Shown: positions 48,279 through 63,302 of the stretch, in pieces
Position numbering within the stretch: position 1 is the first letter of the stretch
Layout: each line of letters opens with the position of its first letter
Source of the DNA: Candidatus Poribacteria bacterium
GTDB lineage: Bacteria; Poribacteria; WGA-4E; JAJDTR01
Length of the DNA stretch: 64,000 nucleotides
Direction: 5' to 3'
NCBI GenBank assembly: GCA_965222225.1
Contig: CBDCTK010000002.1
Coordinates: 4,680,643-4,744,642 of the forward strand
Translations under genes and position numbers: made by a program
The notes under the pieces: generated by a model
What the model saw: only the letters and a program-made list of their open reading frames with translations
Told to the model about the DNA's origin: nothing
The model's database searches: none

Positions 48279-48905
48279 AATCGGAAAGATCCTCCTATTG
48301 TTGATGAAGTTATAGTTTATGCATGATTGTTGATTTTGAACACATACAATATACTGCCTTGGAAGCAGAATCGGCAATCAAATTGTTGGCGTCGGAAGGT
48401 AATTTAAAAGAATTGGCATCTACCCCACCGCAATCACAGAACATGAATCCTCGTAGAAGGCTTATCGTTACTCGACACTCACGGTCAGCGCGGAAAACCG
48501 TATCGTGAAGAAGCGTCCGCCTTCTGTTTCCTCTATGTGAATAGGACTTCCGTAGGGTACACCGTCAGTCTATCGTGTTCCGTCCGTGAGGACACATCAT
48601 TGGCAGCAGGTCGAACGCTTCGCATCAATCCTGGCAGGAATGTGGCGAACCAGGCGTTGTCAGACCAATTTCAGATAACTCGGACAAATCATCCCAGTCA
48701 CAGTCCAAGCAGAATAACTGGTTGTCGCCAATGGATTTAATTGAATTGCGTTCACAATTTGGACATAGCATTTTTTGACCTCCCGCCCAAGAAACGATGC
48801 GAATCTTATTGAGGTTGCAAGAGTTGAACTTGCAACGGCAGCAAGCAATTGAATCCACCCCGGCGCGAAATGGGGCATTGGGTGTAATGGAACGCCGTCA
48901 GTGAA

Positions 48906-50426
48906 TCATAGACTATCGAGTTCTTTAACAGCCTGGATGCCGCTATCTAACGCTTCAAAAAGCAGTGGTAATCGGCTATTGTCTACCCCGGCGTAGACTA
49001 GATTAGGTTCAGATCGACGCGGGTTCTTATCCCTGAATAGGTAATGAGGTTTAGGAACCGGCATTGCGTGTCCAAGCACCTTTATGAAAACCCGATCCAC
49101 CAAACTGCTAACCTTTCGATTAAAAAATAGGTCGATCGTCTCTACCGTCTTATGGACAATCTCCTGAGCGTTGTGCCGAATATTCGTAAGATACGGTCTC
49201 TGGTTGGGCTGGAAGCAGTAGTATGCCGTAAACACCCGTGAATCACCTACGCGAAGTTGAGAGGCGCTATCCACGAATCCCATGAAGGTCGCATCTTGGC
49301 TCAAGAACTCGTTCTGCCAAAACGCCTCCGCCCGGAGATTCTCCTTAAGAACGATGTTAAGCACCAACCAAGGCGCATATATGTTATCTTGAAAAAGATG
49401 GGCGTCGGGCGGAAACACATATTTTAGCGCATGTTTCCCTCCGGCGTAGATTACATTTCGTGCAAGGTAACGGTCAATCCGAGAGTTCTCAATATTTATT
49501 ACGGTAACTTCGAAGCCGTTCTCAACTCTCTGAATACGCCGCACCAAGCGATTTGTCTTGATATTATCGCTGGGCAACACCGCCGCCATCTTGTTGACAA
49601 AGTAAGTGTTCCCCGCCGCCGGCGAAAACAGTTCCACGGATTGCGTGTAGTAAGGTCTACAAGCATAGTAGTGGATTCCGGCGAGTGCAGAGACCGTCTC
49701 CGCGCCGGCGCCGTAGTCGTCCCTCATCTGGTAGTCAACCCCCTGTTTGAAGGATGGAGTTAATCTCAAAGTACGCTCAAGAAAGTCAAGAAAGCTTATT
49801 TCATCAAGCGACCATAAATCCTCCCGAATGATTCGCGTCGGCAGCTTCATCTCGCCCAGATAGGGAAGCACTAACTCCAAGAAATCAGTTTTGAGTTGCC
49901 CCGGTTCAAGGAGTTCCTCTCTTAATCCATTTGAGGTAAGGGTTTGGCCCTCCCGCTCGGCATTAATCAGATACTGTCGGTCGACAAAATTCCACGCCTC
50001 AACCAATTTATTGTAACGAATTACTCCCAGTTCTTCAAGGAAGTTTAAGGTTTCGCTGCCGTAATAGTTTGGGTAGGCTAACTCGTAATGCGCACCTTGT
50101 GAAAACACTTCACCGGCGTGAGATTCGCTCGCCGAAGTGCCGCCGAGTTGCGTGGATAATTCGCAGAGGACGAAGTCCCTGTCCCGGAGTTGGCATGCCG
50201 CCGATAGCCCGGAGATGCCGCCGCCCACGATAAGATAATCCGTAGAGAACGTGTTCCCTGTTGGCAACGCGGCGCTATCCAAGATTAAATGTCCCGCCCG
50301 CATGTCCGATTTGATGGATATCTCATACGCTTGCCGATTGGGCTTATCGGATGTTGAATCGCATGATTGACTGAGGATTCCTGCGAGGGCGAGTGAGGAA
50401 AGCTTAATGAACGTTCGACGGTTCAT
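48906..50426 (-). CDS. Tat-exported FAD-dependent oxidoreductase (amine-oxidase/phytoene-desaturase-like fold)
   Basis: Twin-arginine signal MNRRTFIKLSSLALAGILSQSC, then the dinucleotide motif DYLIVGGGISGLSAACQL and a second FAD contact near the C-terminus (…VYAGVDNS…). Confidence 0.6.
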   Translation of the reverse strand: MNRRTFIKLSSLALAGILSQSCDSTSDKPNRQAYEISIKSDMRAGHLILDSAALPTGNTFSTDYLIVGGGISGLSAACQLRDRDFVLCELSTQLGGTSASESHAGEVFSQGAHYELAYPNYYGSETLNFLEELGVIRYNKLVEAWNFVDRQYLINAEREGQTLTSNGLREELLEPGQLKTDFLELVLPYLGEMKLPTRIIREDLWSLDEISFLDFLERTLRLTPSFKQGVDYQMRDDYGAGAETVSALAGIHYYACRPYYTQSVELFSPAAGNTYFVNKMAAVLPSDNIKTNRLVRRIQRVENGFEVTVINIENSRIDRYLARNVIYAGGKHALKYVFPPDAHLFQDNIYAPWLVLNIVLKENLRAEAFWQNEFLSQDATFMGFVDSASQLRVGDSRVFTAYYCFQPNQRPYLTNIRHNAQEIVHKTVETIDLFFNRKVSSLVDRVFIKVLGHAMPVPKPHYLFRDKNPRRSEPNLVYAGVDNSRLPLLFEALDSGIQAVKELDSL

Positions 50427-50536
50427 GGTAGGAGCGACATGCTTGTCGGGATTGTCAAAGTAGGACTAATACATCGGAGATTGTAGGGAAACAAGAACAA
50501 TGGAACGATTTTTCTCACCGTAACCGGACTAGCACC

Positions 50537-53500
50537 TTATGCTGCCCAACGCTCCGACAAAACTTCGGCTTGCTCCAAGACGGTTTCAGCGGCTTTAGCT
50601 TGTTTATCGGGTGGATAGCCGTATTTCCGCAGAATTCGCTTCACCAATCGGCGCAGGTTGGCGCGGACGCTCTCCTTCATCGTCCAGTCGATGGTCACGT
50701 TGTTTCGGACAGTTTTCACAAGTTCAGCCGCAATAGTGCACAAGGTCTCATCTCCCAACACTTGCACGGCGCTGTCGTTGGTCTCAAGTGCGTCGTAGAA
50801 CGCCAATTCATCGCTCGAAAGCCCCAACTCCTCGCCGCGCTCTACCGCCTCACGCAACTCCCTTGCTGTTTGGATAAGCTCCTCAATCACCTGCGCGGCT
50901 TCTATTGTCCGGTTTTGATAAGCGCGAATTGATTGTTCCAACATCTCCGCGAATGACCGCGATCTTACGACATTCTGCCGTGAATGCGTCTTGATTTCAT
51001 CGTTGAGCAACTTATCCAAGAGTTCGACTGCCAGGTTCCTTTGCGGTAAGTCCCGCACCTCCGCGAGGAATTCGTCGGAAAGAACTGAGATATCGGGCTT
51101 CTCCAATCCGGCGGCGGCAAAGATGTCAACCACCCCTTCGGGAACGACAGCTCTTGATACCAACTGCTTGATTGCCAGGTCCGCCGCCTCGGACTGCGTT
51201 TCTTCTCTAGCCGTCAGCTTTTCCAAGACACCGCGCACCGCTTGGAAAAAGGCGACATCGTCGCGGATTTCAATTGCCCTTTCGTGCGGCACTACTAGCG
51301 AAAAGGCTTTGGAGAGCGCAGTGACCTCATTCAGTAGGCGGGTTTTGCCATCTTCCAAGCCCAAGATATGCTCTTGAGCGGCGGGCAGTAGCCTGAGGCG
51401 TTCCTCGGTGTTTCCGTCATCCCACGACGACCAATCTAATCCGTGGAACAGCCCACAGCAGATTTCGTGTTTTTCCATCATTACGGCAATGGCTTCGGCT
51501 TTATCAATGGATGGCTCCCCTTTTCCTCCGCTGTCAGTGTAGTCCGCCAATGCTCGCTTGAGATGGTAGCCAATCCCGATATAGTCCACAATAAGACCAC
51601 CGGGCTTTTCGCCGAAGACGCGATTGACGCGCGCGATGGCTTGCATAAGGGTGTGACCTCGCATCGGCTTGTCAACATACATCGTGTGAAGGCTAGGCGC
51701 ATCAAATCCGGTCAGCCACATGTCGCGGACAATCACAAACTTCAACGCATCATCGGGATTCTTGAACCGAACCGCCAGCTCTTCGCGCCGCGCTTTGTTG
51801 CGGATATGCGGTTGCCACGACTCGTCCTCCGACGCTTCGCCCGTCATTACAACCTTAATAATCCCCTGCGTGTCCTCCTCATCATGCCAACCCGGACGCC
51901 TTTCCACAATGGCGTTGTAGAGATCGACGCAGATACGGCGGCTCATGCAGACCACCATCGCTTTGCCGTCCATCGCATCCAACCGCTCCTCGAAATGCGT
52001 GATGATGTCATCGGCAACCAGAGCCAGACGCTTCTCCGTTCCGACCAGTGCCTCAAGTTGAGCCCATTTGGATTTGAGTCGCTCCTTGTGCCTTTCCTCC
52101 TCCCCTTCGGTCACCTCCTCAAATTCCGGGTCAACATGGGGCTTCTCGTTCTCGTCCAGCTCAATTTTGGCGAGTCGGCTCTCGTAGTAGATTCGGACAG
52201 TGGCACCGTCATCAACCGCTTGTTGGATATCATAGATGCTGATGTAGTCTCCGAATACGTTTCGGGTGTTGCGGTCCGTTCCCTCAATCGGGGTGCCGGT
52301 AAAACCGATAAATGAGGCGTTCGGAAGCGCGTCGCGCATGTGACGGGCAAATCCGTCAATAAAATCATACTGGCTGCGGTGGGCTTCGTCCGCAATGACC
52401 ACAATGTTCCGTCGATCGGGCAGTTCAGGCAAGCGGAGTTCTTCATCTTCGGGAAAGAACTTCTGCACCGTGGTAAAAACTACACCGCCCGAAGCAACTC
52501 TCAAGAGTTCGCGCAAATGTCCCCTGTCTCGCGCTTGTTCCGGCGTTTGTCGCAAGAGTTGGCTGCACCGAGCGAACGTACCGAACAGTTGATCGTCCAA
52601 ATCGTTGCGGTCGGTAATGACGACCAGTGTCGGGTTTCGCATCTCCGGGCGCCGGATGATACCCCCGGCGTAGAATGCCATAGTCAGGCTTTTGCCCGAA
52701 CCTTGCGTGTGCCAGATAACGCCGCAGCGTTTGTCCCCGTCTGGGCGCGACGCCTTCACGGTAGCATCGACCGCCGCTCTAACGGCGTGGAATTGGTGAT
52801 AACCGGCAATCTTCTTGGCAATCGTATCGCCTCCCGTTTCCTCAAAGACAATGAAATGACTAAGATAGTTTAGGAACCGCTCCTTGTCAAAGAGGCCCTT
52901 GATTGTTACCTCAATTTCCGGATCTGTTGATGCGGCTTCCGTTTCTCCCTCAATTGTTCGCCACGGCATGAACCGCTCCCGATCCGCCGTCAAAGAGCCG
53001 ACGCGGGCCTCCACCCCGTCGGAAACAACAAGCGCCTCGTTATACGTGAACAGCCGCGGAATTTCCCGCTTGTAGGTCTGAAGTTGGCGAAAAGCGGACC
53101 ACACGGTGGCGTTCTCGTCGGTCGGATTTTTGAGTTCAATCACGCCTAACGGGAGTCCGTTTACAAACAACACGATATCCGGTCGGCGTTCACTATTTTC
53201 CACGACGGTGAACTGGTTAACCGCCAGCCAGTCGTTGTTTTCGGGACTATCGAAATCCAACAACTGCACACGGTCACCGTGCATTGTGCCGTCGGAATCC
53301 CGATATTCGACCTCTATGCCATCAACCAACATGAGGTGAAATGTCCGATTGTTTTGAAACAATGAGGGGGAGTTTGGAGAATGGACTTTTTGAACGGCTT
53401 CCTCTTGCGATACGGCGGGGATGTTCGGATTCAGGCGGCCAACCGCATCGCGCAAACGACGCTCTAGCACCACGTCCTCGTATCTTGAGCGTTCAGCATC

Positions 53501-53605
53501 GGAAGTGTCCGGGCCGATGTCGGGACCGTGCAAGACGGAATAACCCATACCAGCGAGCCAATTCAGTGCGGCTGTTTCGATGTCGGATTCGGTGATGCTA
53601 TTCAT
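50537..53605 (-). CDS. hsdR: Type I restriction enzyme R subunit (endonuclease/helicase)
   Basis: N-terminal PD-(D/E)xK nuclease region, SF2 helicase motifs (GSGKSLTM Walker A; DEAH in …[10 protein letters not shown]…), 1022 aa, and the typical HsdR C-terminal helical domain. Confidence 0.9.
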
Positions 53606-53655
53606 TGATTCTTGACGTTCAGTATTATTGCTAACGGTTTATTTTTGTAAGAGGG

Positions 53656-54893
53656 TTAATGTGACGAGTTAACATGAAGGCTTTCACCCTGTATTGGACC
53701 ACCTGAATTGGTCAACGGATCCCCAACCTCAAAGAAACCCTCCATCCAGAGGTGTCCTAACTTCCCTCCTGTCTCCATGAATTGATGAATTCCGCGCATG
53801 TCCACCGTGCGTTTGCAAACCGTAAACCCCTCCTCATCTCGATACAGTACCCACACCTCGTCGGCGTGGAGCTCGTTGATAAAATAAGGAAATGGGTAGT
53901 AATCATGAGTTGAGACGAGGCTGACGCCCCACGGCACTCGTCTGTCAAACTAGGCAACAACCGTGGATGTAAGTGATTTTCAGGTTCTCCAATACCGATA
54001 AAGGGGGCAGGCTCTGGATCATGTAGCAGCGTGAGATACGAAAGCAACTTTAACGTGCCCTCCGAGGTAAACTTCGCCAAGATGGATTGCTCAAACGGTG
54101 CATCTTTTATCTGCAACAACAAGCGACCATCCGCCATCAGTTCTGCGTCTACCTTTTCTAGTCGTGGCACCTGATTTGACATAATTGAGAGAATCTTTCG
54201 CAAACGGCTTGGGTGCTGTTCTTTCAAATACTGGATAACGTTCGCCAGATTGTCTCCTGTTTCTGAAAGCTGCTCTCGCGGCCCCGTTGCTTCAACTCCG
54301 CGTGTGGCATCAATGGAAAGATGGGAGAGATGCCAGCCAGTAATGAAACGACGAAGGGGCCCAAGACGTGGGTAGCGCGACAATTGGCCAAGAGTGCTCG
54401 CAGCAAGTGTTGACGAATCATCAAACTGTTCATCGGTTTGCTCCGCTTCCTCATCTGGCATTTCACCCGCGATGACTCGTCCTGCGCCGTGACGAAAATC
54501 AAGAAAACGAAACGGCTTCCCCCGATTGCCGCGCCGCCAACTCATCCATTCGGATTCCACAAAGGGGCCCTGTACTCCTTCATCAATGGCTAGATGATAG
54601 GTGATAATTGGCATTCCCGGTTTCTCACGATATTTCAAATCAAATTCAATTGCTCCATCACTTCCCCGTGTTCGCAGATGCTTAAACCGCCCTCTTTTAT
54701 CCCAGGCACGGCGCAATCCGATTGTGAAACATTCGGAGAGAAACGCAAATACATCAAGTAGCGTGGACTTTCCACTGCCATTGGGACCCGAGAAGACTGA
54801 AAGCGGCGTTATTTTTCGTAATTGCACATCCCGCAGAGAGCGGTAATCTTTCACGCGTAATGACTCAATGCGGGGAACGGTTTGTTGCAGCAT
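53656..54893 (-). CDS. ABC-type AAA ATPase (AAA_15/AAA_21-like, OLD/abortive-infection-type); split by an apparent frameshift near 53890
   Basis: Start ATG 54893 (MLQQTVPRIESLRVKDYRSLRDV…). Walker A SGPNGSGKST, Walker B/D-loop …FIGIGEPENHLHP…, and the H-loop …SQLMITTH. The sequence then continues in another frame as (S)PYFINELHADEVWVLYRDEEG… (ORF 53656..53937), matching the usual TTHSPxLL…EVWVL continuation of this family. Confidence 0.6.
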
Positions 54894-54936
54894 CTGAATT
54901 GCCTCTATGGCTACCCTGACATGGCGACTATTTGTT

Positions 54937-56052
54937 TTACCCCTGTTGCGGCGTAGTATAGCGAGCAACAAATTTGCTACTGTCAATATCCGGCTGTCCT
55001 TGTCGGGCATAGAAGGAGGAGAAGCGCGCGACAATATCCTTTACAAAGAAAGGCGAAATCTGGATTGAGGGTTTTTCAAACTTTTCGTCGAATTCGTTTT
55101 TAGTCAGCGCGTTCATTTTTCTGAAATTAAGAAACCCACCGTCAAAAAAATCTGTTTTCGGCAACCAGTGGTAGTAAAATGTGTAATTGTTGTTGAATAC
55201 CGCCTTGAGTGTTTCTTTCGTCTTCTCCCTTTTCCTCTTCTCGTCGCGCATCCTCTTAACACTAACCAATGCCTTGTCTACAATATGATTTTCTTTTTCA
55301 ATCTCAACGAGGAGAATACGATCTGTCCTGAATTCACCGTTACTTTTGAAAACGAGATCGCACGCCGGACTCAACACCACGAAAGGCTGATCGCTCGTCT
55401 CGTCTTTCACAATACTCCCGGTTGTGATATTGCTCGACAACGGTGGATGGAGGTAGACCTCTTCTGGAAAACACCGTTCGTCACCTTCCTCAAGCAGTTG
55501 AAATAAGTGATTCAAGGTGTATCGGAGAAGAGCCTTTTCGGTTCGCTCTGAATCTTCTTTTCCATAAGAAATCCAGGTTTGTATCTGTGACCGAAGGTTT
55601 TTGAGAAAAACTTCATTTAGTCGCTGTTCGATTAGTCCTCTGCCACCCATGATGTGGGTTAATCCCGTATCAAAAATCTCCCAAAATCGGTCTAGAAGTT
55701 CGTCATACCGAGTTTTCCCTTTTTGGAAAACGCTAAGGAGCATGATTTTTTTATTCAAAGTGTAATCTGAATTGCCCGGGTTTGCCGTAAATATGGCAAT
55801 TGGAATGCGGAAAAACGACTCTTCGATCTTTTTGATAACCTGATTCCCCTCATCACCTTCATTCGCTAGTTTTAAATCGATAATCGCACCATCAAAAGAG
55901 TTGTCCAACAGTTCTAATGCTTTATCAAGAGTTTTGCATCCAACCGGTTCAATATCTCGATTCTTTTCATCAACGTATCTTTCCACAGAATCCTTGCACG
56001 CCTCAAGATCTTGTTCGTCGTCTTCCACGATTAGCAACCGTAACTTGCTCAT
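54937..56052 (-). CDS. Receiver (REC) domain protein with an uncharacterised ~250-aa C-terminal domain (candidate effector)
   Basis: N-terminal CheY-like receiver: acidic pocket LLIVEDDE, phospho-acceptor Asp in …DGAIIDLKL…, and a conserved T/K (…IAIFTANPG…). Residues ~120-371 carry no motif I recognise. The start ATG overlaps the upstream kinase stop (ATGA). Confidence 0.6.
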   Translation of the reverse strand: MSKLRLLIVEDDEQDLEACKDSVERYVDEKNRDIEPVGCKTLDKALELLDNSFDGAIIDLKLANEGDEGNQVIKKIEESFFRIPIAIFTANPGNSDYTLNKKIMLLSVFQKGKTRYDELLDRFWEIFDTGLTHIMGGRGLIEQRLNEVFLKNLRSQIQTWISYGKEDSERTEKALLRYTLNHLFQLLEEGDERCFPEEVYLHPPLSSNITTGSIVKDETSDQPFVVLSPACDLVFKSNGEFRTDRILLVEIEKENHIVDKALVSVKRMRDEKRKREKTKETLKAVFNNNYTFYYHWLPKTDFFDGGFLNFRKMNALTKNEFDEKFEKPSIQISPFFVKDIVARFSSFYARQGQPDIDSSKFVARYTTPQQG

Positions 56053-58226
56053 TTACCATTCTCCATCTTGGGCTGAAGTCTGAAATAGGCGCCTTCATCG
56101 GACTCAAAGGCTTTCAACTCAAGACCGTTTCGCTCTGCGGCTTCAGAGGCTATCGCCAGCCCAAGCCCCGTTCCGTCCGGTTTGGTGGAAAACTCAGGTT
56201 CAAAGATGACTTCATTTTCGATGAGGCTCGGTTCAATTCCCGGTCCGCTATCTCGATAGTCAATATGGGACAGAGAGTTACCATCGGTCACGAGTTCGAT
56301 TTTAATTTGCCGTTTGGTTCCTTTCTTTTGGCTCATCCAATAAAGACTGTTGTCGATAAGATTTGTGAAAACCACGTAGATGTCTTGAGACCAAGCGGAG
56401 AATTTAAAGCTGTCAGTACCTCTGATTTCGGTAGATACATCTTCGGATTTCATCTCGTTTTCAAAAACTGAGAGAGTATTCTCTATTGTCTTCTTCAACT
56501 CCAGTGGTTTTTTGGCGGCACGTTTTCCCGCGGCTAGTGGATTAAGTCTTCCGAAGAGTTTCACGAAAATCTCCATATTTTCCTCAACACCATCGGCAAT
56601 CGACAGCATTTTTTCAAGTTTTCCCAGATCCCCGGTTTCCTGAAATCTTTCTCTCCAGTATCTGAGATTCGGTATTTGGTTCCGAAAGTAGCTGAGCGGT
56701 TGGCTGCCTTCATGGACTATGACATTAAGGATTTTCCCTAGAGTGGCTTGCCCTTGGTAAACCCTAAGAGCTTGCCTGATTTCATTAGCATCCCTGCCCT
56801 TATCTTTTTCTACCTGGCCAACGATTTCAATAATTCGATCGATGGTTGGTTGATTGCACCCATCTTCGGTGAGTTGCCTCCGTATGTTCCGTTTCAACGC
56901 ATCAAAGGAGAAAAGCCGTCCCAGCTCCCGTTCCACCTTGATAGCAGGCCGACTCAATCCTGCTTTTCTTCTGTACTCATAACGCCGCCTTTCCAGTTGC
57001 CTGATGACCGCCAGTGTGACTTCCTTCAGCCGATTGAACGCCTCATTCTCTTTAAGCCCGTCCCGAGCGCTTTTTTCCTCCAAGCCGGACCACTCGACCG
57101 AATCAATGTGCACATATCCTATGACTTGATTGTTAGCAATACAGAGTGACGGATTCTGTACGCGTCTCGCGTTCAGTTTCAACCAGTCAAAATCGGCATC
57201 GCCAAGCGGTCGGATGCGGAAGCCGTTCCGATAAACGCCGATACCGTTGTATGCATTCAGAAGCTGTCTCGCCTGATTTTTCCCGACATAGTTGCCCGAT
57301 TCCTCCTTTAGTCCTCGTCCAATCAAAGATTCAATGGCATCGTTGTCGCGGTCATACACACAGATTTCAATTTGAAACTCGCCGCAGCCAGTAGAATTTT
57401 CAAAATCAAATGACACTTCCTCCCTTATATCAAAGTCGATCTGTACGTCGGGAACGTTACGGGCTTTCTGTGATGAGTACGTCAGAAAACCTTTACCATT
57501 TTTTCCGATGTTCCCCGAGATCCTGTAGTCATAGAGATCGAAAAGTAAATAGGGTTCGATCTCTTTCTCAAAGTCCTCCACGCCCGGAAAACCCCGAACT
57601 TTCAAGTTTATACGAAATTCATCATCCTTAAAGACGCTACTCACAGGTGATTTTAGTTTCTTCAACTCAAACTGGAGCTCCTCAAACCGTTTCTGATCCC
57701 ATTCGGCGAGAAGCTGATTATTTCCATTGATGGTCAGTCGTGTGCCTGGTGACTCCGATACCTTCGTTGTTTCAATGGGAATTCCCACGTCATCTAGATA
57801 TTCAGCAGACTCGAATTTGTTCCATTCAAAAGATGCCGTAGTTTTCTCTCCTTCTGGAGTCACAGTTTCGAAAAACAAATCTGTGCCGAGAATGGATGCC
57901 GCATACCGTCCCACACCCTTATTTCCTTGCATTACCCTTCCCCCACGACTGATGCGTTTGTCAAATTTGTCCCGCGTTGACGGCACCATCCATTTGTCGA
58001 TGACATCGTCCCTCGACATCCCGTGACCGTGATCTGAGATAATGATAGAATATCCACTGCGAGTAGGAGATTTCTTGAATTCCACCTGCACATCCGGAGA
58101 GTCTGCATCATACGCGTTTTTTACGAGTTCGACAACAGCCGCAGAATTGTCGTGAATTAGGTCTTTTCCGATAGTCAGAACGTGCCGCCCCGCGGGCCTA
58201 ATTTTATGAGTTGTATTGGCGTTCAT
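56049..58226 (-). CDS. Cytoplasmic histidine-kinase-like protein with an additional N-terminal Hsp90/MutL/MORC-type GHKL ATPase module
   Basis: N-terminus (start ATG 58226, GAGGAGG RBS): GHKL N-box/G-boxes …AVVELVKNAYDA…, …IIISDHGHGMS…, …GNKGVGRYAAS…. The middle has an H-box-like VHEGSQPLSYF. The C-terminus is a canonical HATPase_c: N-box NLIDNSLYW, G1 DSGPGI, G2 GTGLGLAI. No TM helices. Confidence 0.6.
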   Translation of the reverse strand: MNANTTHKIRPAGRHVLTIGKDLIHDNSAAVVELVKNAYDADSPDVQVEFKKSPTRSGYSIIISDHGHGMSRDDVIDKWMVPSTRDKFDKRISRGGRVMQGNKGVGRYAASILGTDLFFETVTPEGEKTTASFEWNKFESAEYLDDVGIPIETTKVSESPGTRLTINGNNQLLAEWDQKRFEELQFELKKLKSPVSSVFKDDEFRINLKVRGFPGVEDFEKEIEPYLLFDLYDYRISGNIGKNGKGFLTYSSQKARNVPDVQIDFDIREEVSFDFENSTGCGEFQIEICVYDRDNDAIESLIGRGLKEESGNYVGKNQARQLLNAYNGIGVYRNGFRIRPLGDADFDWLKLNARRVQNPSLCIANNQVIGYVHIDSVEWSGLEEKSARDGLKENEAFNRLKEVTLAVIRQLERRRYEYRRKAGLSRPAIKVERELGRLFSFDALKRNIRRQLTEDGCNQPTIDRIIEIVGQVEKDKGRDANEIRQALRVYQGQATLGKILNVIVHEGSQPLSYFRNQIPNLRYWRERFQETGDLGKLEKMLSIADGVEENMEIFVKLFGRLNPLAAGKRAAKKPLELKKTIENTLSVFENEMKSEDVSTEIRGTDSFKFSAWSQDIYVVFTNLIDNSLYWMSQKKGTKRQIKIELVTDGNSLSHIDYRDSGPGIEPSLIENEVIFEPEFSTKPDGTGLGLAIASEAAERNGLELKAFESDEGAYFRLQPKMENGK

Positions 58227-58389
58227 AACTGATTGCCTCCTCTTTTCCGCGGTGTTTAATCCCATGAGGTTTAGTCCGTAGCACAAACGATTGAAAAGTC
58301 AATTTGCTTGAATGCCGGCTGAATCATACCGTGAACGTATCTAGAGATTAAGAAATGATGCAGGGACTAGATACACCAAACAGCGGAGA

Positions 58390-59403
58390 TTATATCAAGT
58401 CAAAGAGATGCTGATGCGTAATTTCCGTATGGAACCAAGCTCCATAGGCACTGCGCAACCAGATTTCGGACGTACGAATCCAATCTCTCCAAGCATGCTC
58501 CATTTGTGCACGTTCCACATTCAAGACGCTCCAGAGCATCGGCAGCGACTGCGGCTTCTGAATTAGTAGAGAAATCGCACGTTGGTTTACTTCGGTGCCC
58601 TCAGACACAAATGTCAACGGAATCTCCAAGTAGGGATTGAAATTTGAGGGTAGACTTTCCTCATTGCCTGAAGCAATGTTTGCCGCTAGTTCATGAATAT
58701 GCAGTGCCAGATAATACGCAACTAGTGAAGCACGGTATTCAAATTCATCGCCGAATATGTGTGATAACCACTCCCATCCTGGCCTTTCATACGCTCCGGC
58801 CAAATATTTCCAACCTTTTACGCAATTTCCACCAGAATTACCACTAATCGACTCGGCGTACCCCCTTAATTCACTTCTTTGCCATAGATAAAGGTGCTTT
58901 GATGCATCTGCAACAGGAATCTTCGTTCGTGCAAGATCTAGGGCAAGGTCGAGTTGACCTGTTAACAGGCTAAGCCCTCCGTGGAGACTGTGGTAGACAT
59001 ACCCTAGTACATCAGGAATGTTAGACCATGTTGTGTTACTAGTACGGTTCCATCCCGGGATGTTCATCAAATCATAAATCAAAGACTTTTGATCCTTAAG
59101 TTCCTCTTTGCAGGATTCAACTCCCATTAAGGCAACAGAAATTAAGGGGGAGATGACATTGACGCCACCGTCTACAATCTGAAACAACTTCTCGAAATCC
59201 GGTTCTTGTCCATCCAACTCCCTTTCTCGCCATTTTACCAAGGCTTTGAGCACACTTGGTTTAATTCGTTTCATGAGTTGACGCCACCCAAGCACATCTC
59301 CCGCACGAGCAAGTTCAAATGCTACTGAATAAGCGTCGGATGCCGATTCAACGCACTCCGGGATTTCAGGTAATTGGGCGAAGATTTTAGGATATTCATC
59401 CAT
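58390..59403 (-). CDS. Hypothetical protein (337 aa) in the hsdS-hsdR insert
   Basis: Predicted all-helical protein with no recognised family. It has a C-terminal R-x4-H (…ERAQMEHAW…) reminiscent of HEPN-type signatures, but this is weak. Confidence 0.35.
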   Translation of the reverse strand: MDEYPKIFAQLPEIPECVESASDAYSVAFELARAGDVLGWRQLMKRIKPSVLKALVKWRERELDGQEPDFEKLFQIVDGGVNVISPLISVALMGVESCKEELKDQKSLIYDLMNIPGWNRTSNTTWSNIPDVLGYVYHSLHGGLSLLTGQLDLALDLARTKIPVADASKHLYLWQRSELRGYAESISGNSGGNCVKGWKYLAGAYERPGWEWLSHIFGDEFEYRASLVAYYLALHIHELAANIASGNEESLPSNFNPYLEIPLTFVSEGTEVNQRAISLLIQKPQSLPMLWSVLNVERAQMEHAWRDWIRTSEIWLRSAYGAWFHTEITHQHLFDLI

Positions 59404-59470: not shown

Positions 59471-59731
59471 TCAATCAACGTGAATCTCCCCTGACAAAAG
59501 TTTCGGCAGCAGTGCCTCTCGAATTTGGGAAAGAGTGTGTGATTGATGAATGTTTTCGATAATTCTCCCAATGAGTGGTCGTATTAAATCGCTGTATTTT
59601 TGAGCGATTTCAAGTTGGGGCAGCACGAATTCATACTTTGACATGTCTCTCCAATTGGTTCGTGGCATTCTTGTACCCGTGGAATGAGCGTCAGTATAAG
59701 CAACGAATTCGTCACAGGACACAATCCCCAA
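59471..59731 (-). pseudogene. hsdS: Detached 3' fragment of hsdS (end of the second target-recognition domain plus the conserved C-terminal helix)
   Basis: …SQIREALLPKLLSGEIHVD is the conserved HsdS C-terminal coiled-coil motif. It is in a different frame from the main hsdS ORF and separated from it by ~185 nt. Confidence 0.5.
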
Positions 59732-59916
59732 AACAACATCGAACCATTCTGATTTAATCGGCTGGACAACTAGAATGTCGGTTGAGCAAACCCCATCGGT
59801 CGGCGCAACGCCGACCTTGTGAAAATAAGGTCGAAGTTTCCCAAAGAGGATTTCACCCTTTCTGAATCGAGATTTATTGCTGCCGATTCCGTCGGCAGTT
59901 TGCCATTCAGAGAGAG

Positions 59917-61131
59917 CTATACTCCGCTTGACATATGCTCTAATCCGATATAAACGTCGCTTGAGTCGATTTGGTTAACGTTTGCACTACGTCGAACATT
60001 TTGTGCAATTTCTCCGAGTGTTCCAACCTCCCACCCCTCCGGAATCTTCCCCAACGGCGAATCTTGAAAAGCAGAAGGGAATATGGTGGCGGTTTCCGCG
60101 TCCATGCCAACGGGCTCCCGCCCCTCCATCTTTGCCCGCACGGGATCTAAATCCACAAACCACGACTTGAAGATTGCCTTTGCCATCGCCTCCAGCGTCT
60201 CGTTCATCTGCCGATTAAGTTCGATCTTGTCGTCAAGTGAGCCTAGGATGTTGGCAATCCGGCGTTGCTCAGGAAGAGGTGGTAATGCAACAAGAAAAGA
60301 TTCAATGTGCGCTTTGGTAAGCGCTTTTCTTGTCCCTCCAGAATCGTGACCTAGCACGTAGGCTTTAACCCGCGGAGCACTCAAGTATTTTTGAAGGAAA
60401 GTGCTATTTAACCTATCAGAAGTTCGTATAACGGCAACATGTTGATTCACTCTCGCTGGTAGGGTCCATTTTGGAACAACGCAGCAACGAGCAACTGAAT
60501 CTCCTGTGATGTTCAAAAGCACATCATCTTCTTGTATATCTACCCGCCGTAATTTATATGCTGCAGATTCATCAATGTGGGCTAATCCATCTCTACTGAA
60601 TTCATGATCGTAGACGTTTTGGCTACGGATCAAACTCACTCCTTCCGATTTATAGACGTTCTTCCCGCCTCTAGGCGTCGCGCCAGTGCTTATAAATGAC
60701 GTTACGTCCGCTAAACGAACAACCTCCCAACCGGTAGGCGGCGCTCCTAGGGGTAGTGATTTTAACAATAGCTCATTTATTTTGGCACTTTGATTCTGGG
60801 TATTTTTTGAATTCGTGCATTCACCTGCAGTCTTCGCTTGGCGTATTACCTCATATTCCTCAGCAATCACGTGCTTGAACCCATCTGATAGCACATGCCA
60901 ATCTAACACATCAACCCGAATTGGAAGGTCGGATTCCTCGAATGCCTCTTTCAACTGACGCATGCGCCTTAGGCTGAACGGCTCACTACCGACAACTGCA
61001 AGATCTAGGTCTGAATAATCCTTTGCTGTCCATGTCATCCGTGATCCATAGGCGCGAACCTCGCATTCGGGGGCATGTTCCGTCAGTATGCGTTGAACTG
61101 TTTCAAGATATTTGGGATTAAGGTCAATCAT
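59917..61131 (-). CDS. hsdS: Type I R-M specificity subunit HsdS (truncated in TRD2) with an in-frame N-terminal MNT-type nucleotidyltransferase domain
   Basis: aa 1-98 are a minimal nucleotidyltransferase (…[24 protein letters not shown]…VDVLDWH…). From ~aa 120 it is HsdS (…[18 protein letters not shown]…, central conserved …[44 protein letters not shown]…). It ends ~45 aa into the second TRD. The start overlaps the hsdM stop (ATGA). Confidence 0.65.
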
Positions 61132-62738
61132 TGTGTGCTTTTATGCCCGAACATTCTCAGACTATGCCCAATTGCCTCGTCCTGTCGTCTTGCCTCTGCC
61201 ATCTGATCCGCCAGTCGTTCCGTCAAGAGGGCTATTTTCTCCTCAAACGGCTCGTCATCGTCCTCCTGAGCCTCGGCGCCGACGTAACGTCCGGGGGTCA
61301 ACACATTTCCGTGCTCGTGTATCTCTTCCAAGCTGGTGCTCTTGCAGAAACCCGGGATGTCCGAATATTCACCCGCTCCCTCGTCGCTGCGCCAAGCGTG
61401 ATAGGTGCTGGCAATGCGGGTTACGTCTTCTTCACTGAGTTCCCGGTGCACACGGTCAATCATGGCGCCGAGTTTCCGGGCGTCAATGAACAGCGTTTCC
61501 TTCCTCCGCTTTCGAAAACGAGAATCCTCTTTATTTCGAGCGAGAAACCAAAGGCACACGGGTATCTGCGTCGAATAGAACAGTTGCCCCGGCATCGCGA
61601 CCATGCAATCGACCAAGTCGGCTTCAATGATATTCTTGCGGATTTCGCCCTCGCTGGTAGTGTTGGAACTCATCGAACCGTTTGCCAGCACGAATCCGGC
61701 GATGCCATCGGGCGCGAGGTGATGGATGAAGTGTTGTACCCACGCAAAGTTGGCGTTTCCTGTTGGAGGCACCCCGTAAACCCAGCGCCTGTCCTCACGC
61801 AGTCGCTCGCCTCCCCAGTCGCTGCTATTGAACGGCGGATTGGCGAGGATGTAATCAACTTTCAGGTCGGGATGAAGTTCGCGGTGAAAACTATCGGCGT
61901 GCTCAACCCCAAGATTGGCGTCAATGCCGCGAATGGCGAGGTTCATCTGCGCCAGTTGCCAAGTGGTCGGGTTGGACTCCTGTCCGAAGATTGAGATATC
62001 GTCGCGTCCTCCGCCGTGCGCTTCAACAAAGGCTTCACTTTGGACGAACATGCCGCCCGACCCACAGCACGGGTCGTGCACTCGTCCTTTGTAGGGCGCA
62101 AGCATCTCCACCAGCACCCCCACCACGCAGCGTGGCGTGTAGAACTGGCCGCCTCTCTTGCCTTCTGCGCTGGCAAATTGTGAGAGAAAGTATTCGTAAA
62201 CCCTACCCAAGATGTCCTTCGATCGATTCTCCTCCTCTCCCAAACCGATTGTGCCAATCAGGTCAACTAGCTCGCCAAAGCGACGTTTGTCAAGCATCGG
62301 GCGGGCGAAGTTCTTTGGCAGAACACCTTTAAGACGAGGGTTCTCTCCTTCAATGGCACCCATGGCTTTGTCAACTAGCGTGCCTATTTCCGGTGTTTTG
62401 GCGCGGGCTTGCAGATAGGACCAGCGTGCTTCTGTCGGGACGTAGAAGATGTTTTCCGCAAGGTATTCATCTCGGTCTTCCACAAACTCGTAACGAAAGG
62501 ATTCTTCTTCAAGATAATATTCACTCTCAGAATTAGCGGATTGTTTAAGTAGAAAAGCGTGTCGTTCCTCAAAACGGTCCGAGATGTACTTGAGGAAAAT
62601 CAACCCCAATACGACGTGTTTGTATTCCGCGGCATCAAGATTGTTGCGGAGCTTGTCGGCGGCTTGCCACAAGGTGGCTTCAAAACCGAGCGTCGCCCCG
62701 TTTCCGTTTGGTTTTGACTTTCTCTTGTTTCTTGCCAT
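61128..62738 (-). CDS. hsdM: Type I R-M N6-adenine DNA methyltransferase subunit
   Basis: HsdM N-terminal helical domain, SAM motif I (…[13 protein letters not shown]…), and catalytic motif IV NPPF (…[14 protein letters not shown]…); 536 aa. Confidence 0.9.
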
Positions 62739-63099: not shown

Positions 63100-63302
63100 A
63101 CCCTACAAACTATGTCATCGTCCGCGGCGGTTAGAAACCAGCAATCTTTACGCTTCCATTGCCATATTTCCTCACATAATGTCACATAATGTCACAATTT
63201 TTTAATTTATCTTATCGCGCTAAGATCCTGTTTGAAAAAGAAGAAAGTTGTCTGAAGGGTTGATGATTACGTTTACTCATTGGAGCAGTTCATTCTGAAC
63301 CA

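Follow-up and report, generated by a model that had tools for sequence, protein, structure and literature searches.

Is an ATPase gene of the ATP-binding cassette (ABC) type that loses its reading frame just after the H-loop a dead component of a bacterial defence island, a component put to a new use, or an intact gene damaged only in assembly? The question arises in a 64,000-nucleotide (nt) stretch of Candidatus Poribacteria DNA (contig CBDCTK010000002.1; the whole stretch is called the window here), where such a gene lies between the hsdS and hsdR genes of a type I restriction-modification (R-M) system, beside a gene pair encoding a histidine-kinase-like protein and a receiver-domain protein. 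The gene is probably a genuine pseudogene of an orphaned, decaying ATPase of HEC-01 (PADLOC 'Hma-embedded candidate 01'), a pairing of an ABC ATPase with a TOPRIM-like protein that occurs embedded within further defence systems (Payne et al., bioRxiv 10.1101/2024.01.29.577857). We infer that the deletion arose biologically and not in assembly, and that the protein no longer works; in this genome, the gene most likely has no function.

The ATPase gene and its lesion

The gene, its two reading frames and its motifs are arranged as follows (positions are those of the window):

53656..54893, minus strand: the whole gene, a probable pseudogene of a HEC-01A-type ABC ATPase, 412 amino acids (aa) after one base is restored (Pfam, PADLOC, 98 per cent identity to the intact protein P0001)
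53757..54893, minus strand: frame-A reading, a 378-aa truncated product of 334 native and 44 out-of-frame residues
53656..53889, minus strand: frame-B remainder, the conserved C-terminal 78 residues (SPYFINEL...GDPLTNSGGP...), no longer in frame
53889..53891, minus strand: frameshift site, a 1-nt deletion (C) that turns codon 335 from TCT into T-T (alignment to loci L001, L089 and L002)
54762..54788, minus strand: Walker A, GPNGSGKST, intact and conforming to GxxGxGKS/T (translation)
54042..54065, minus strand: signature, SEGTLKLL (translation)
53964..54002, minus strand: degenerate Walker B/D-loop, FIGIGEPENHLHP, with Gly302 where the family (motif IGIEEPEN) has an invariant acidic residue
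53892..53909, minus strand: H-loop, LMITTH (translation), with His334 present and all downstream sequence out of frame

Two overlapping open reading frames (ORFs) on the minus strand, 53757..55034 (likely ATG at 54893) and 53656..53937, are offset by one, and restoring a single base joins them into the 412-aa protein. The deleted base, at 53890, belongs to codon 335, immediately after the H-loop His334; in the DNA alignment, the related locus L001 reads CCCATTCTCCC where the window reads CCCATT-TCCT, lacking a C. Protein searches returned thousands of relatives, one of which, P0001, is intact and 98 per cent identical to the repaired ATPase. The 13.5-kb contig that carries it (L001) is collinear with window positions 57341..48796 at 95.7 per cent identity, and in the 8,554 columns of this alignment the deletion at 53890 is the only uncompensated insertion or deletion (indel), all other gaps being compensated pairs. 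The truncated 378-aa product is itself on record as P0279 (on a 5,635,097-bp NCBI/ENA contig).

A preliminary description of the window had reported two offset ORFs with a frame shift near 53890, just after the H-loop, and had located the Walker A, Walker B/D-loop and H-loop motifs; translation and the L001 alignment agree with it on all of these positions. It had missed that the Walker B motif is not canonical, Gly302 replacing the invariant acidic residue.

The same description had assigned the gene to the AAA_15/AAA_21-type defence ABC ATPases, and profile matches of the repaired protein uphold this. It matches the Pfam models AAA_21 (E-value 1.2e-22; 81.8 bits against a cut-off of 27) and AAA_15 (2e-17; 64.3 bits against 32.1), and the PADLOC model of HEC-01A (PDLC04182) at an E-value of 2.8e-155 across profile positions 2-404 of 406. 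The family match is far beyond chance. A conserved housekeeping ABC ATPase, the identity that the description had named as fatal to its proposal, can be dismissed: among NCBIfam and Pfam models, recF (28.3 bits against 172), SbcC (18.3 against 478.5) and SMC_N (32.1 against 40) all score below their cut-offs and cover only the P-loop region. Among solved structures, the ATPase matched only OLD and PtuA-type ATPases, remotely and in the P-loop and H-loop regions.

Some sub-models in PADLOC-DB appear to have their HEC-01 A and B labels swapped, as PDLC04144, labelled HEC-01B, matches the ATPase at 6.9e-111 and PDLC04143, labelled HEC-01A, matches DUF4276 at 3e-36.

Of the features needed for catalysis, Walker A is complete, the combination of a Walker B acidic residue and a catalytic Glu is lost (G302-E303), and the H-loop His334 is kept with the C-terminal strands that should follow it frameshifted. 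In a solved ABC ATPase (PDB 9n69), the residue that aligns with Gly302 is the Walker B Asp. Even the repaired protein would thus still lack the Walker B acidic residue. The C-terminal 78 residues hold 14 of the 117 near-invariant columns of the family and have a mean pairwise identity of 68 per cent across it; the 378-aa product, as predicted from the sequence, would be without them whether the lesion is genuine or an error.

If programmed ribosomal frameshifting or transcriptional slippage restored the full-length protein, the lesion would be harmless, and the downstream frame is indeed still open and conserved. The lesion is recent, which accounts for that conservation. All 82 related loci examined, including alleles with 98 per cent identity, read in frame across the deletion point, and the site (CCCATTTCCTTATTTT) contains neither an X XXY YYZ slippery heptamer nor a homopolymer run. 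We regard such recoding as very improbable and, given these comparative data, effectively refuted. Phase variation was also considered and rejected, as the site has no repeat tract.

The missing DUF4276 partner and the state of the orphan ATPase

In a scan for relatives of the ATPase that took one genome per species, we recovered 80 loci with 63-76 per cent identity, distributed over Poribacteria, cyanobacteria, Chloroflexi, Planctomycetota, Deltaproteobacteria and the archaeon Methanothrix; the closest loci all belong to Candidatus Poribacteria. In about 70 of the 80, the ATPase stop codon is followed, no more than a few tens of bases on, by the start of a DUF4276-homologous ORF. DUF4276, which keeps its catalytic residues, has been assigned to the Toprim superfamily (PMC12065111) and is listed as one of the effector domains that accompany defence ATPases of the AAA15/21 type (PMC11464382). 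The DUF4276 proteins of L089 and L002 match the PADLOC HEC-01B model at 1.9e-82 and 1.5e-79. In a few of the loci the DUF4276 gene is decayed (L012, L036, L037, L055), and in six it is undetectable, two of which end at a contig edge (L016 and L052; the others are L006, L072, L074 and L081).

The usual nuclease partner had been described as absent from the window, and so it is: tblastn across the 64 kb found no DUF4276, and the site where canonical loci carry it is reduced to a short spacer:

53606..53655, minus strand: 50-nt spacer from the ATPase stop to the hsdR ATG, site of DUF4276 (HEC-01B) in canonical loci (layout comparison)

The same chromosomal site has two layouts in Poribacteria. 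Type A loci (L002, L089, L090) have the order hsdS, bSEFIR, 407-aa ATPase, DUF4276 and hsdR. Type B loci have one or more bSEFIR-type genes, kinase, receiver, 412-aa ATPase and hsdR, without DUF4276. The window is of type B, and 103 nt stand in it where L089 has 711 nt. The other type B members are L001 (98 per cent ATPase identity), L086-88 (80 per cent), L091 (79 per cent), L006 (76 per cent) and the pair L172/L173. In a neighbour-joining tree, the type B ATPases form one clade, and they share the C-terminal tail LH[VI]NSSH, which points to a single loss of DUF4276, probably in the ancestor of type B Poribacteria. The first ~12 nt of the DUF4276 gene might survive in the ATPase tail (CATATTAACTC compared with CATATTGAATTC), although the segment is too short to serve as evidence.

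Many relatives of the ATPase (P0007, P0008, P0014 and others; 552-556 aa) consist of an N-terminal SEFIR/TIR domain fused to a HEC-01A ATPase, and at the loci checked (L010, L038, L040, L079) the fusion is still followed by DUF4276. In the type A loci of Poribacteria, a separate bSEFIR gene lies directly upstream of the ATPase. The fusions and these adjacent genes suggest that SEFIR/TIR effectors may be functionally linked to HEC-01.

Without DUF4276, the type B ATPases have diverged at their catalytic site. The Walker B EE dyad is kept in all 81 non-type-B sequences examined; it has become GE (E302G) in the window, L001, L086 and L172, and EL (E303L) in L091 and L006. Further changes differ by lineage and affect the signature (D278 to E, N or A), Walker A (S40G in L086, T44A in L006) and the D-loop (N306T, L308V and H309P). 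At the 117 near-invariant columns, type B sequences deviate at 10-13, compared with a mean of 0.47 and a maximum of 5 in other sequences. Pairwise ratios of nonsynonymous to synonymous substitution (dN/dS) are 0.14-0.21 among type B sequences. The median for the sister type A clade of Poribacteria is 0.058; some pairs of that clade are saturated (dS > 1), but the pair L005/L007, at a dS of 0.5, gives 0.041. Constraint on the type B ATPase is about threefold relaxed, not abolished.

Close relatives also carry outright null alleles. The 90 per cent identity cluster that holds the window allele has 26 member sequences; among the 15 listed, eight distinct sequences are full-length ATPases of 412 or 443 aa, several of which occur on two or more contigs. 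L172 (16x coverage, 517-kb contig) and L173, from a different sample, share a TGA at codon 55 and a TAG at codon 231 of the ATPase gene; these nonsense alleles are free of indels, and in L172 the kinase, receiver and hsdR genes around the ATPase are intact. Two further sequences are frameshifted: P0284 near codon 109, with a Pro-to-Leu change in Walker A, on two contigs (the longest 2.66 Mb), and P0287 near codon 257. The preliminary description had foreseen that the gene might prove degraded in close relatives, as in a simple pseudogene, and relatives at 90 per cent identity or more do carry nonsense codons or frameshifts.

These alleles bear on whether the missing C at 53890 is real. If it were a consensus error, the gene would be intact and the gap an artefact of long-read metagenome assembly, perhaps owing to strain heterogeneity in a hypervariable island. 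Such an origin would suit a single-base deletion in a sequence otherwise 98 per cent identical to intact alleles, the presence of another single-base deletion (AAA to AA) in the nearby hsdS, and the many clustered 1-nt indels in the kinase gene of a related low-coverage contig (L173, 4.3x). The deleted base, however, lies outside a homopolymer (TTCTCC to TTTCC) and is the sole net indel in 8.5 kb relative to L001. The source contig is 5.6 Mb long, which implies good coverage, and two comparable assemblies, at 13x and 18x, have no uncompensated indels over ~14 kb that align at 98-99 per cent identity. No gene is split in the other ~46 kb of the window, where ORFs as long as 1,483 aa are uninterrupted, and over 40 further genes of the window look intact. 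Finally, the substitution-type nonsense alleles, found in close relatives from two samples, indicate that real inactivation of this gene occurs. We consider an assembly error unlikely and hold with fairly high confidence that the deletion is a genuine mutation. A high indel rate across the window was ruled out, as ten abutting ORFs elsewhere in it are all separate full-length genes or domains.

Several observations weigh against a genuine, decaying pseudogene. The second 1-nt deletion, in hsdS, is only 6 kb from the ATPase lesion and could reflect either a locally error-prone, strain-heterogeneous region or the decay of the whole island. A dN/dS of ~0.18 is well below 1, and the gene has stayed intact in at least four diverged lineages after the loss of DUF4276, which argues for a long-retained selectable role, so that the orphan ATPase would not be simply junk. 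The window and L001 ATPases give a dN/dS of 0.37, based on only 20 differences.

The kinase-receiver module and the surrounding island

In the absence of a nuclease partner, the adjacent kinase-receiver pair had been proposed as the functional partner of the ATPase. The pair comprises:

54937..56052, minus strand: receiver-domain protein of 371 aa with an uncharacterised C-terminal domain, a neighbour outside the ATPase system
56049..58286 (likely ATG 58226), minus strand: GHKL and histidine-kinase-like protein, obligate partner of the receiver protein (Pfam HATPase_c_3 and HATPase_c; NCBIfam HK families)

The N-terminus of the kinase resembles the BbrUII/HgiDII restriction enzymes (NCBIfam), and a weak REase_II match to this N-terminus is the only PADLOC match of the module; a literature search on HgiDII/BbrUII brought up nothing relevant to the kinase. 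A single receiver protein used as query gave no loci in the metagenome scan, and an alignment of the receiver family was used instead, which gave 80 (L092-L171). A kinase homologue lies immediately upstream of the receiver gene in 74 of them, the other six being cut by contig ends, and not one of the 80 contains a homologue of the ATPase or of DUF4276. Nor was an ABC ATPase found near the pair in the three genomes sampled (L083-L085; 60-71 per cent identity). Conversely, the pair occurs in one of the 80 genome loci of the ATPase, L006, a member of the type B clade. The proposed partnership is thus not borne out: the ATPase pairs with DUF4276 in about 70 of 80 loci, and the pair occurs without it in 80 + 3. 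Co-occurrence of all three genes is limited to the type B clade of Poribacteria. Because each is widely found without the other in genome and metagenome loci, the ATPase-DUF4276 and kinase-receiver pairs are two independent modules that both tend to nest in R-M operons, and their adjacency here is one historical event in one Poribacteria clade rather than a conserved partnership.

The companions of the kinase-receiver pair are of another kind. A co-directional C5 DNA methylase gene lies upstream in 35 of the 51 loci with enough sequence, and a Vsr endonuclease gene lies downstream in 43 of 65. With these as its usual companions, the module resembles the restriction part of an R-M system built on a C5 methylase and operated by a phosphorelay. 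In several loci (L108, L138, L140, L141) the pair stands alone between hsdS and hsdR, and in the window it has neither a methylase nor a Vsr partner.

The ATPase could nonetheless have found a new role once DUF4276 was lost: deficient in hydrolysis, it would serve the kinase-receiver pair, the bSEFIR-type protein or HsdR as a scaffold or sensor. The order kinase, receiver, ATPase, hsdR is kept, with ORFs intact, down to 76 per cent ATPase identity, and the dN/dS cited above implies continued purifying selection. The genes run in the same direction, 43 and 50 nt apart, and no convincing terminator separates them; a promoter and terminator scan, in which counts were at or below shuffle expectation, gave no information on operon structure. 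As defence genes commonly segregate null alleles, the window might carry one of several such alleles of a still-functional three-gene system, with the partner idea then confined to the type B clade, a version that we also rate as doubtful. Yet the association amounts to a single evolutionary event in one clade: the ATPase is missing from all 80 metagenome loci and all three genomes that have the pair, and the pair is absent from all ATPase loci outside the type B clade, to which only L006 of the 80 genome loci belongs. The catalytic changes moreover differ by sub-lineage (E302G versus E303L; D278E, N or A; T44A; S40G), which argues for relaxed constraint and not for a single adaptive change, and null alleles recur. 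We judge it quite improbable that the protein was exapted. A similarly slim chance goes to its long retention in type B, whether to complete the kinase-receiver module as its third member or to guard or regulate the type I restriction enzyme next to it. The dN/dS and the long retention keep exaptation alive as an alternative; the broad comparative data and the lineage-specific catalytic changes speak against it.

The gene order of the island on the minus strand is hsdM, hsdS, a 337-aa ORF, kinase, receiver, ATPase and hsdR, followed by genes for an amine oxidase and htpG. The genes not yet described are:

50537..53605, minus strand: hsdR, type I restriction subunit, intact (Pfam HSDR_N, SWI2_SNF2 and T1RH-like_C; PADLOC REase_I, E = 0)
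58390..59403, minus strand: 337-aa ORF without a Pfam match, a homologue of bSEFIR-type proteins in their C-terminal part
59483..61131, minus strand: hsdS, broken by a 1-nt deletion (AAA to AA) near 59930 (tblastn with L089 HsdS; frame switch 59932/59929)
61128..62738, minus strand: hsdM, intact, 98 per cent identical to L089 HsdM over 531 aa

At the hsdS lesion, L089 reads ATGCCAAAGCGG and the window reads ATGTCA-AGCGG, which leaves the second target-recognition domain in another frame (59483..59929). With hsdS split, the type I system of this genome may be non-functional or altered in specificity, though both hsdM and hsdR remain intact. In its first ~100 aa, HsdS (59917..61131) carries a Pol-beta-type nucleotidyltransferase domain (Polbeta, 1.9e-08; NTP_transf_2, 4.4e-05), and the same fusion occurs in L002 and L089.

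The 337-aa ORF aligns at 53-58 per cent identity with the last ~325 residues of the bSEFIR-type proteins in L001 and L089 (506-510 aa; PADLOC bSEFIR, 3.9e-80), and their SEFIR/TIR domain is entirely missing from it. L091 (339 aa) and L172 (342 aa) have stand-alone ORFs that correspond to it in size and location, immediately upstream of the kinase gene and likewise without Pfam matches.

Other differences are scattered through the region. The copy number of a 10-bp tandem unit (TGTGACATTA) near 63196, upstream of hsdM, differs among the window, L089 and L090, and the window has a 16-bp insertion at ~63630, upstream of the hsd operon. A 78-aa ORF of L089 and L090 is split in the window (48536..48771, minus strand) by a 2-nt insertion at ~48644, with flanks that are 95-100 per cent identical; this ORF may not be a real gene. 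Relative to L001, dS is 0.03 for the ATPase gene, 0.10-0.12 for the receiver, hsdR and amine oxidase genes and 0.58 for the kinase gene, inside which collinearity with L001 ends, at 57341. The island is a recombination mosaic.

Known relatives and the fate of the ATPase

The ATPase of the window is closest to HEC-01. It is a full-length HEC-01A match nested in a defence operon (hsdM-hsdS...hsdR), where it lies between hsdS and hsdR, and its relatives at 63-78 per cent identity have the HEC-01B/DUF4276 gene directly downstream. It differs in having no adjacent HEC-01B/DUF4276 gene, in the E302G change in Walker B and in its frameshifted ORF. In Escherichia coli, a HEC-01 representative failed to protect against the phages tested (bioRxiv 10.1101/2024.01.29.577857), and the parent system is thus without demonstrated function.

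PARIS, which consists of the AriA ABC ATPase and the AriB DUF4435 TOPRIM nuclease and guards against anti-restriction proteins (PMC11464382), has the same class of AAA_15/21 ATPase and a separate TOPRIM effector. By analogy, such a guard role would fit the location of HEC-01 inside R-M operons. AriA profiles, however, match the window ATPase only partially (3.9e-23 and 5.5e-20, versus 2.8e-155 for HEC-01A), the canonical partner of this ATPase family is DUF4276 and not DUF4435, and the ORFs from hsdR to hsdM, all of which are accounted for, include no AriB/DUF4435-type partner.

Further systems resemble the locus in part. MADS (Mad3/Mad4) and AbiL (AbiLi/AbiLii) combine AAA_15/21 ATPases with DUF4276-like (Mad4) or RloB-like TOPRIM proteins, but their profiles match the window ATPase weakly (mad3, 7.5e-22; AbiLi, 2.1e-23); the NCBIfam MAD3 model scores it at 96.9 bits against a cut-off of 420, and all other MADS genes are absent. 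A gene for an anticodon nuclease, prrC, sits between hsdS and hsdR of EcoprrI, and Campylobacter has R-linked ORFs (Rlo). The window shares with PrrC/Rlo an ABC-type NTPase gene between hsdS and hsdR of a type I system; PrrC differs in having a nuclease domain of its own, which the window ATPase lacks. OLD and Gabija GajA have an ABC ATPase head of the same superfamily (remote matches to Ts OLD, 6p74, at 9.5e-05 and to the GajA profile at 2e-14), but there TOPRIM is fused in one polypeptide, and the window ATPase has no TOPRIM domain.

If the gene is a decaying pseudogene, its history may be reconstructed as follows. The parent module would have been an ABC ATPase with a DUF4276/TOPRIM nuclease, a two-gene candidate anti-phage unit typically nested in R-M operons; by analogy with PARIS and other systems of ABC ATPase and TOPRIM, the ATPase would have acted as a sensor or scaffold that controls the nuclease. 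In one Poribacteria lineage the DUF4276 gene was presumably deleted, leaving the ATPase without an effector directly in front of hsdR, and a separate two-gene kinase-receiver module lies between the upstream bSEFIR gene and the ATPase. The orphan would since have decayed slowly: the Walker B/catalytic Glu-Glu dyad is mutated, not in the same way in all sub-lineages, many otherwise invariant residues have changed, and purifying selection has weakened about threefold relative to the sister clade. Several present-day strains carry outright null mutations, which here would be the 1-nt deletion after the H-loop.

The finding is one of fairly ordinary gene decay in a bacterial defence island, in which a derivative of a known candidate defence family has become TOPRIM-less, catalytically degenerate and frameshifted. 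For annotation, it means that the island should not be scored as a working HEC-01 and, with hsdS broken, possibly does not contain a working type I R-M system. It also cautions that adjacency inside R-M-embedded islands is a poor basis for inferring functional partnership; the neighbouring kinase-receiver module is the more promising lead. For the turnover of defence systems, the locus and its relatives show a two-gene module decaying step by step, with several of the steps preserved in one natural population: deletion of the effector gene, parallel erosion of the catalytic site in sub-lineages, and independent nonsense and frameshift alleles.

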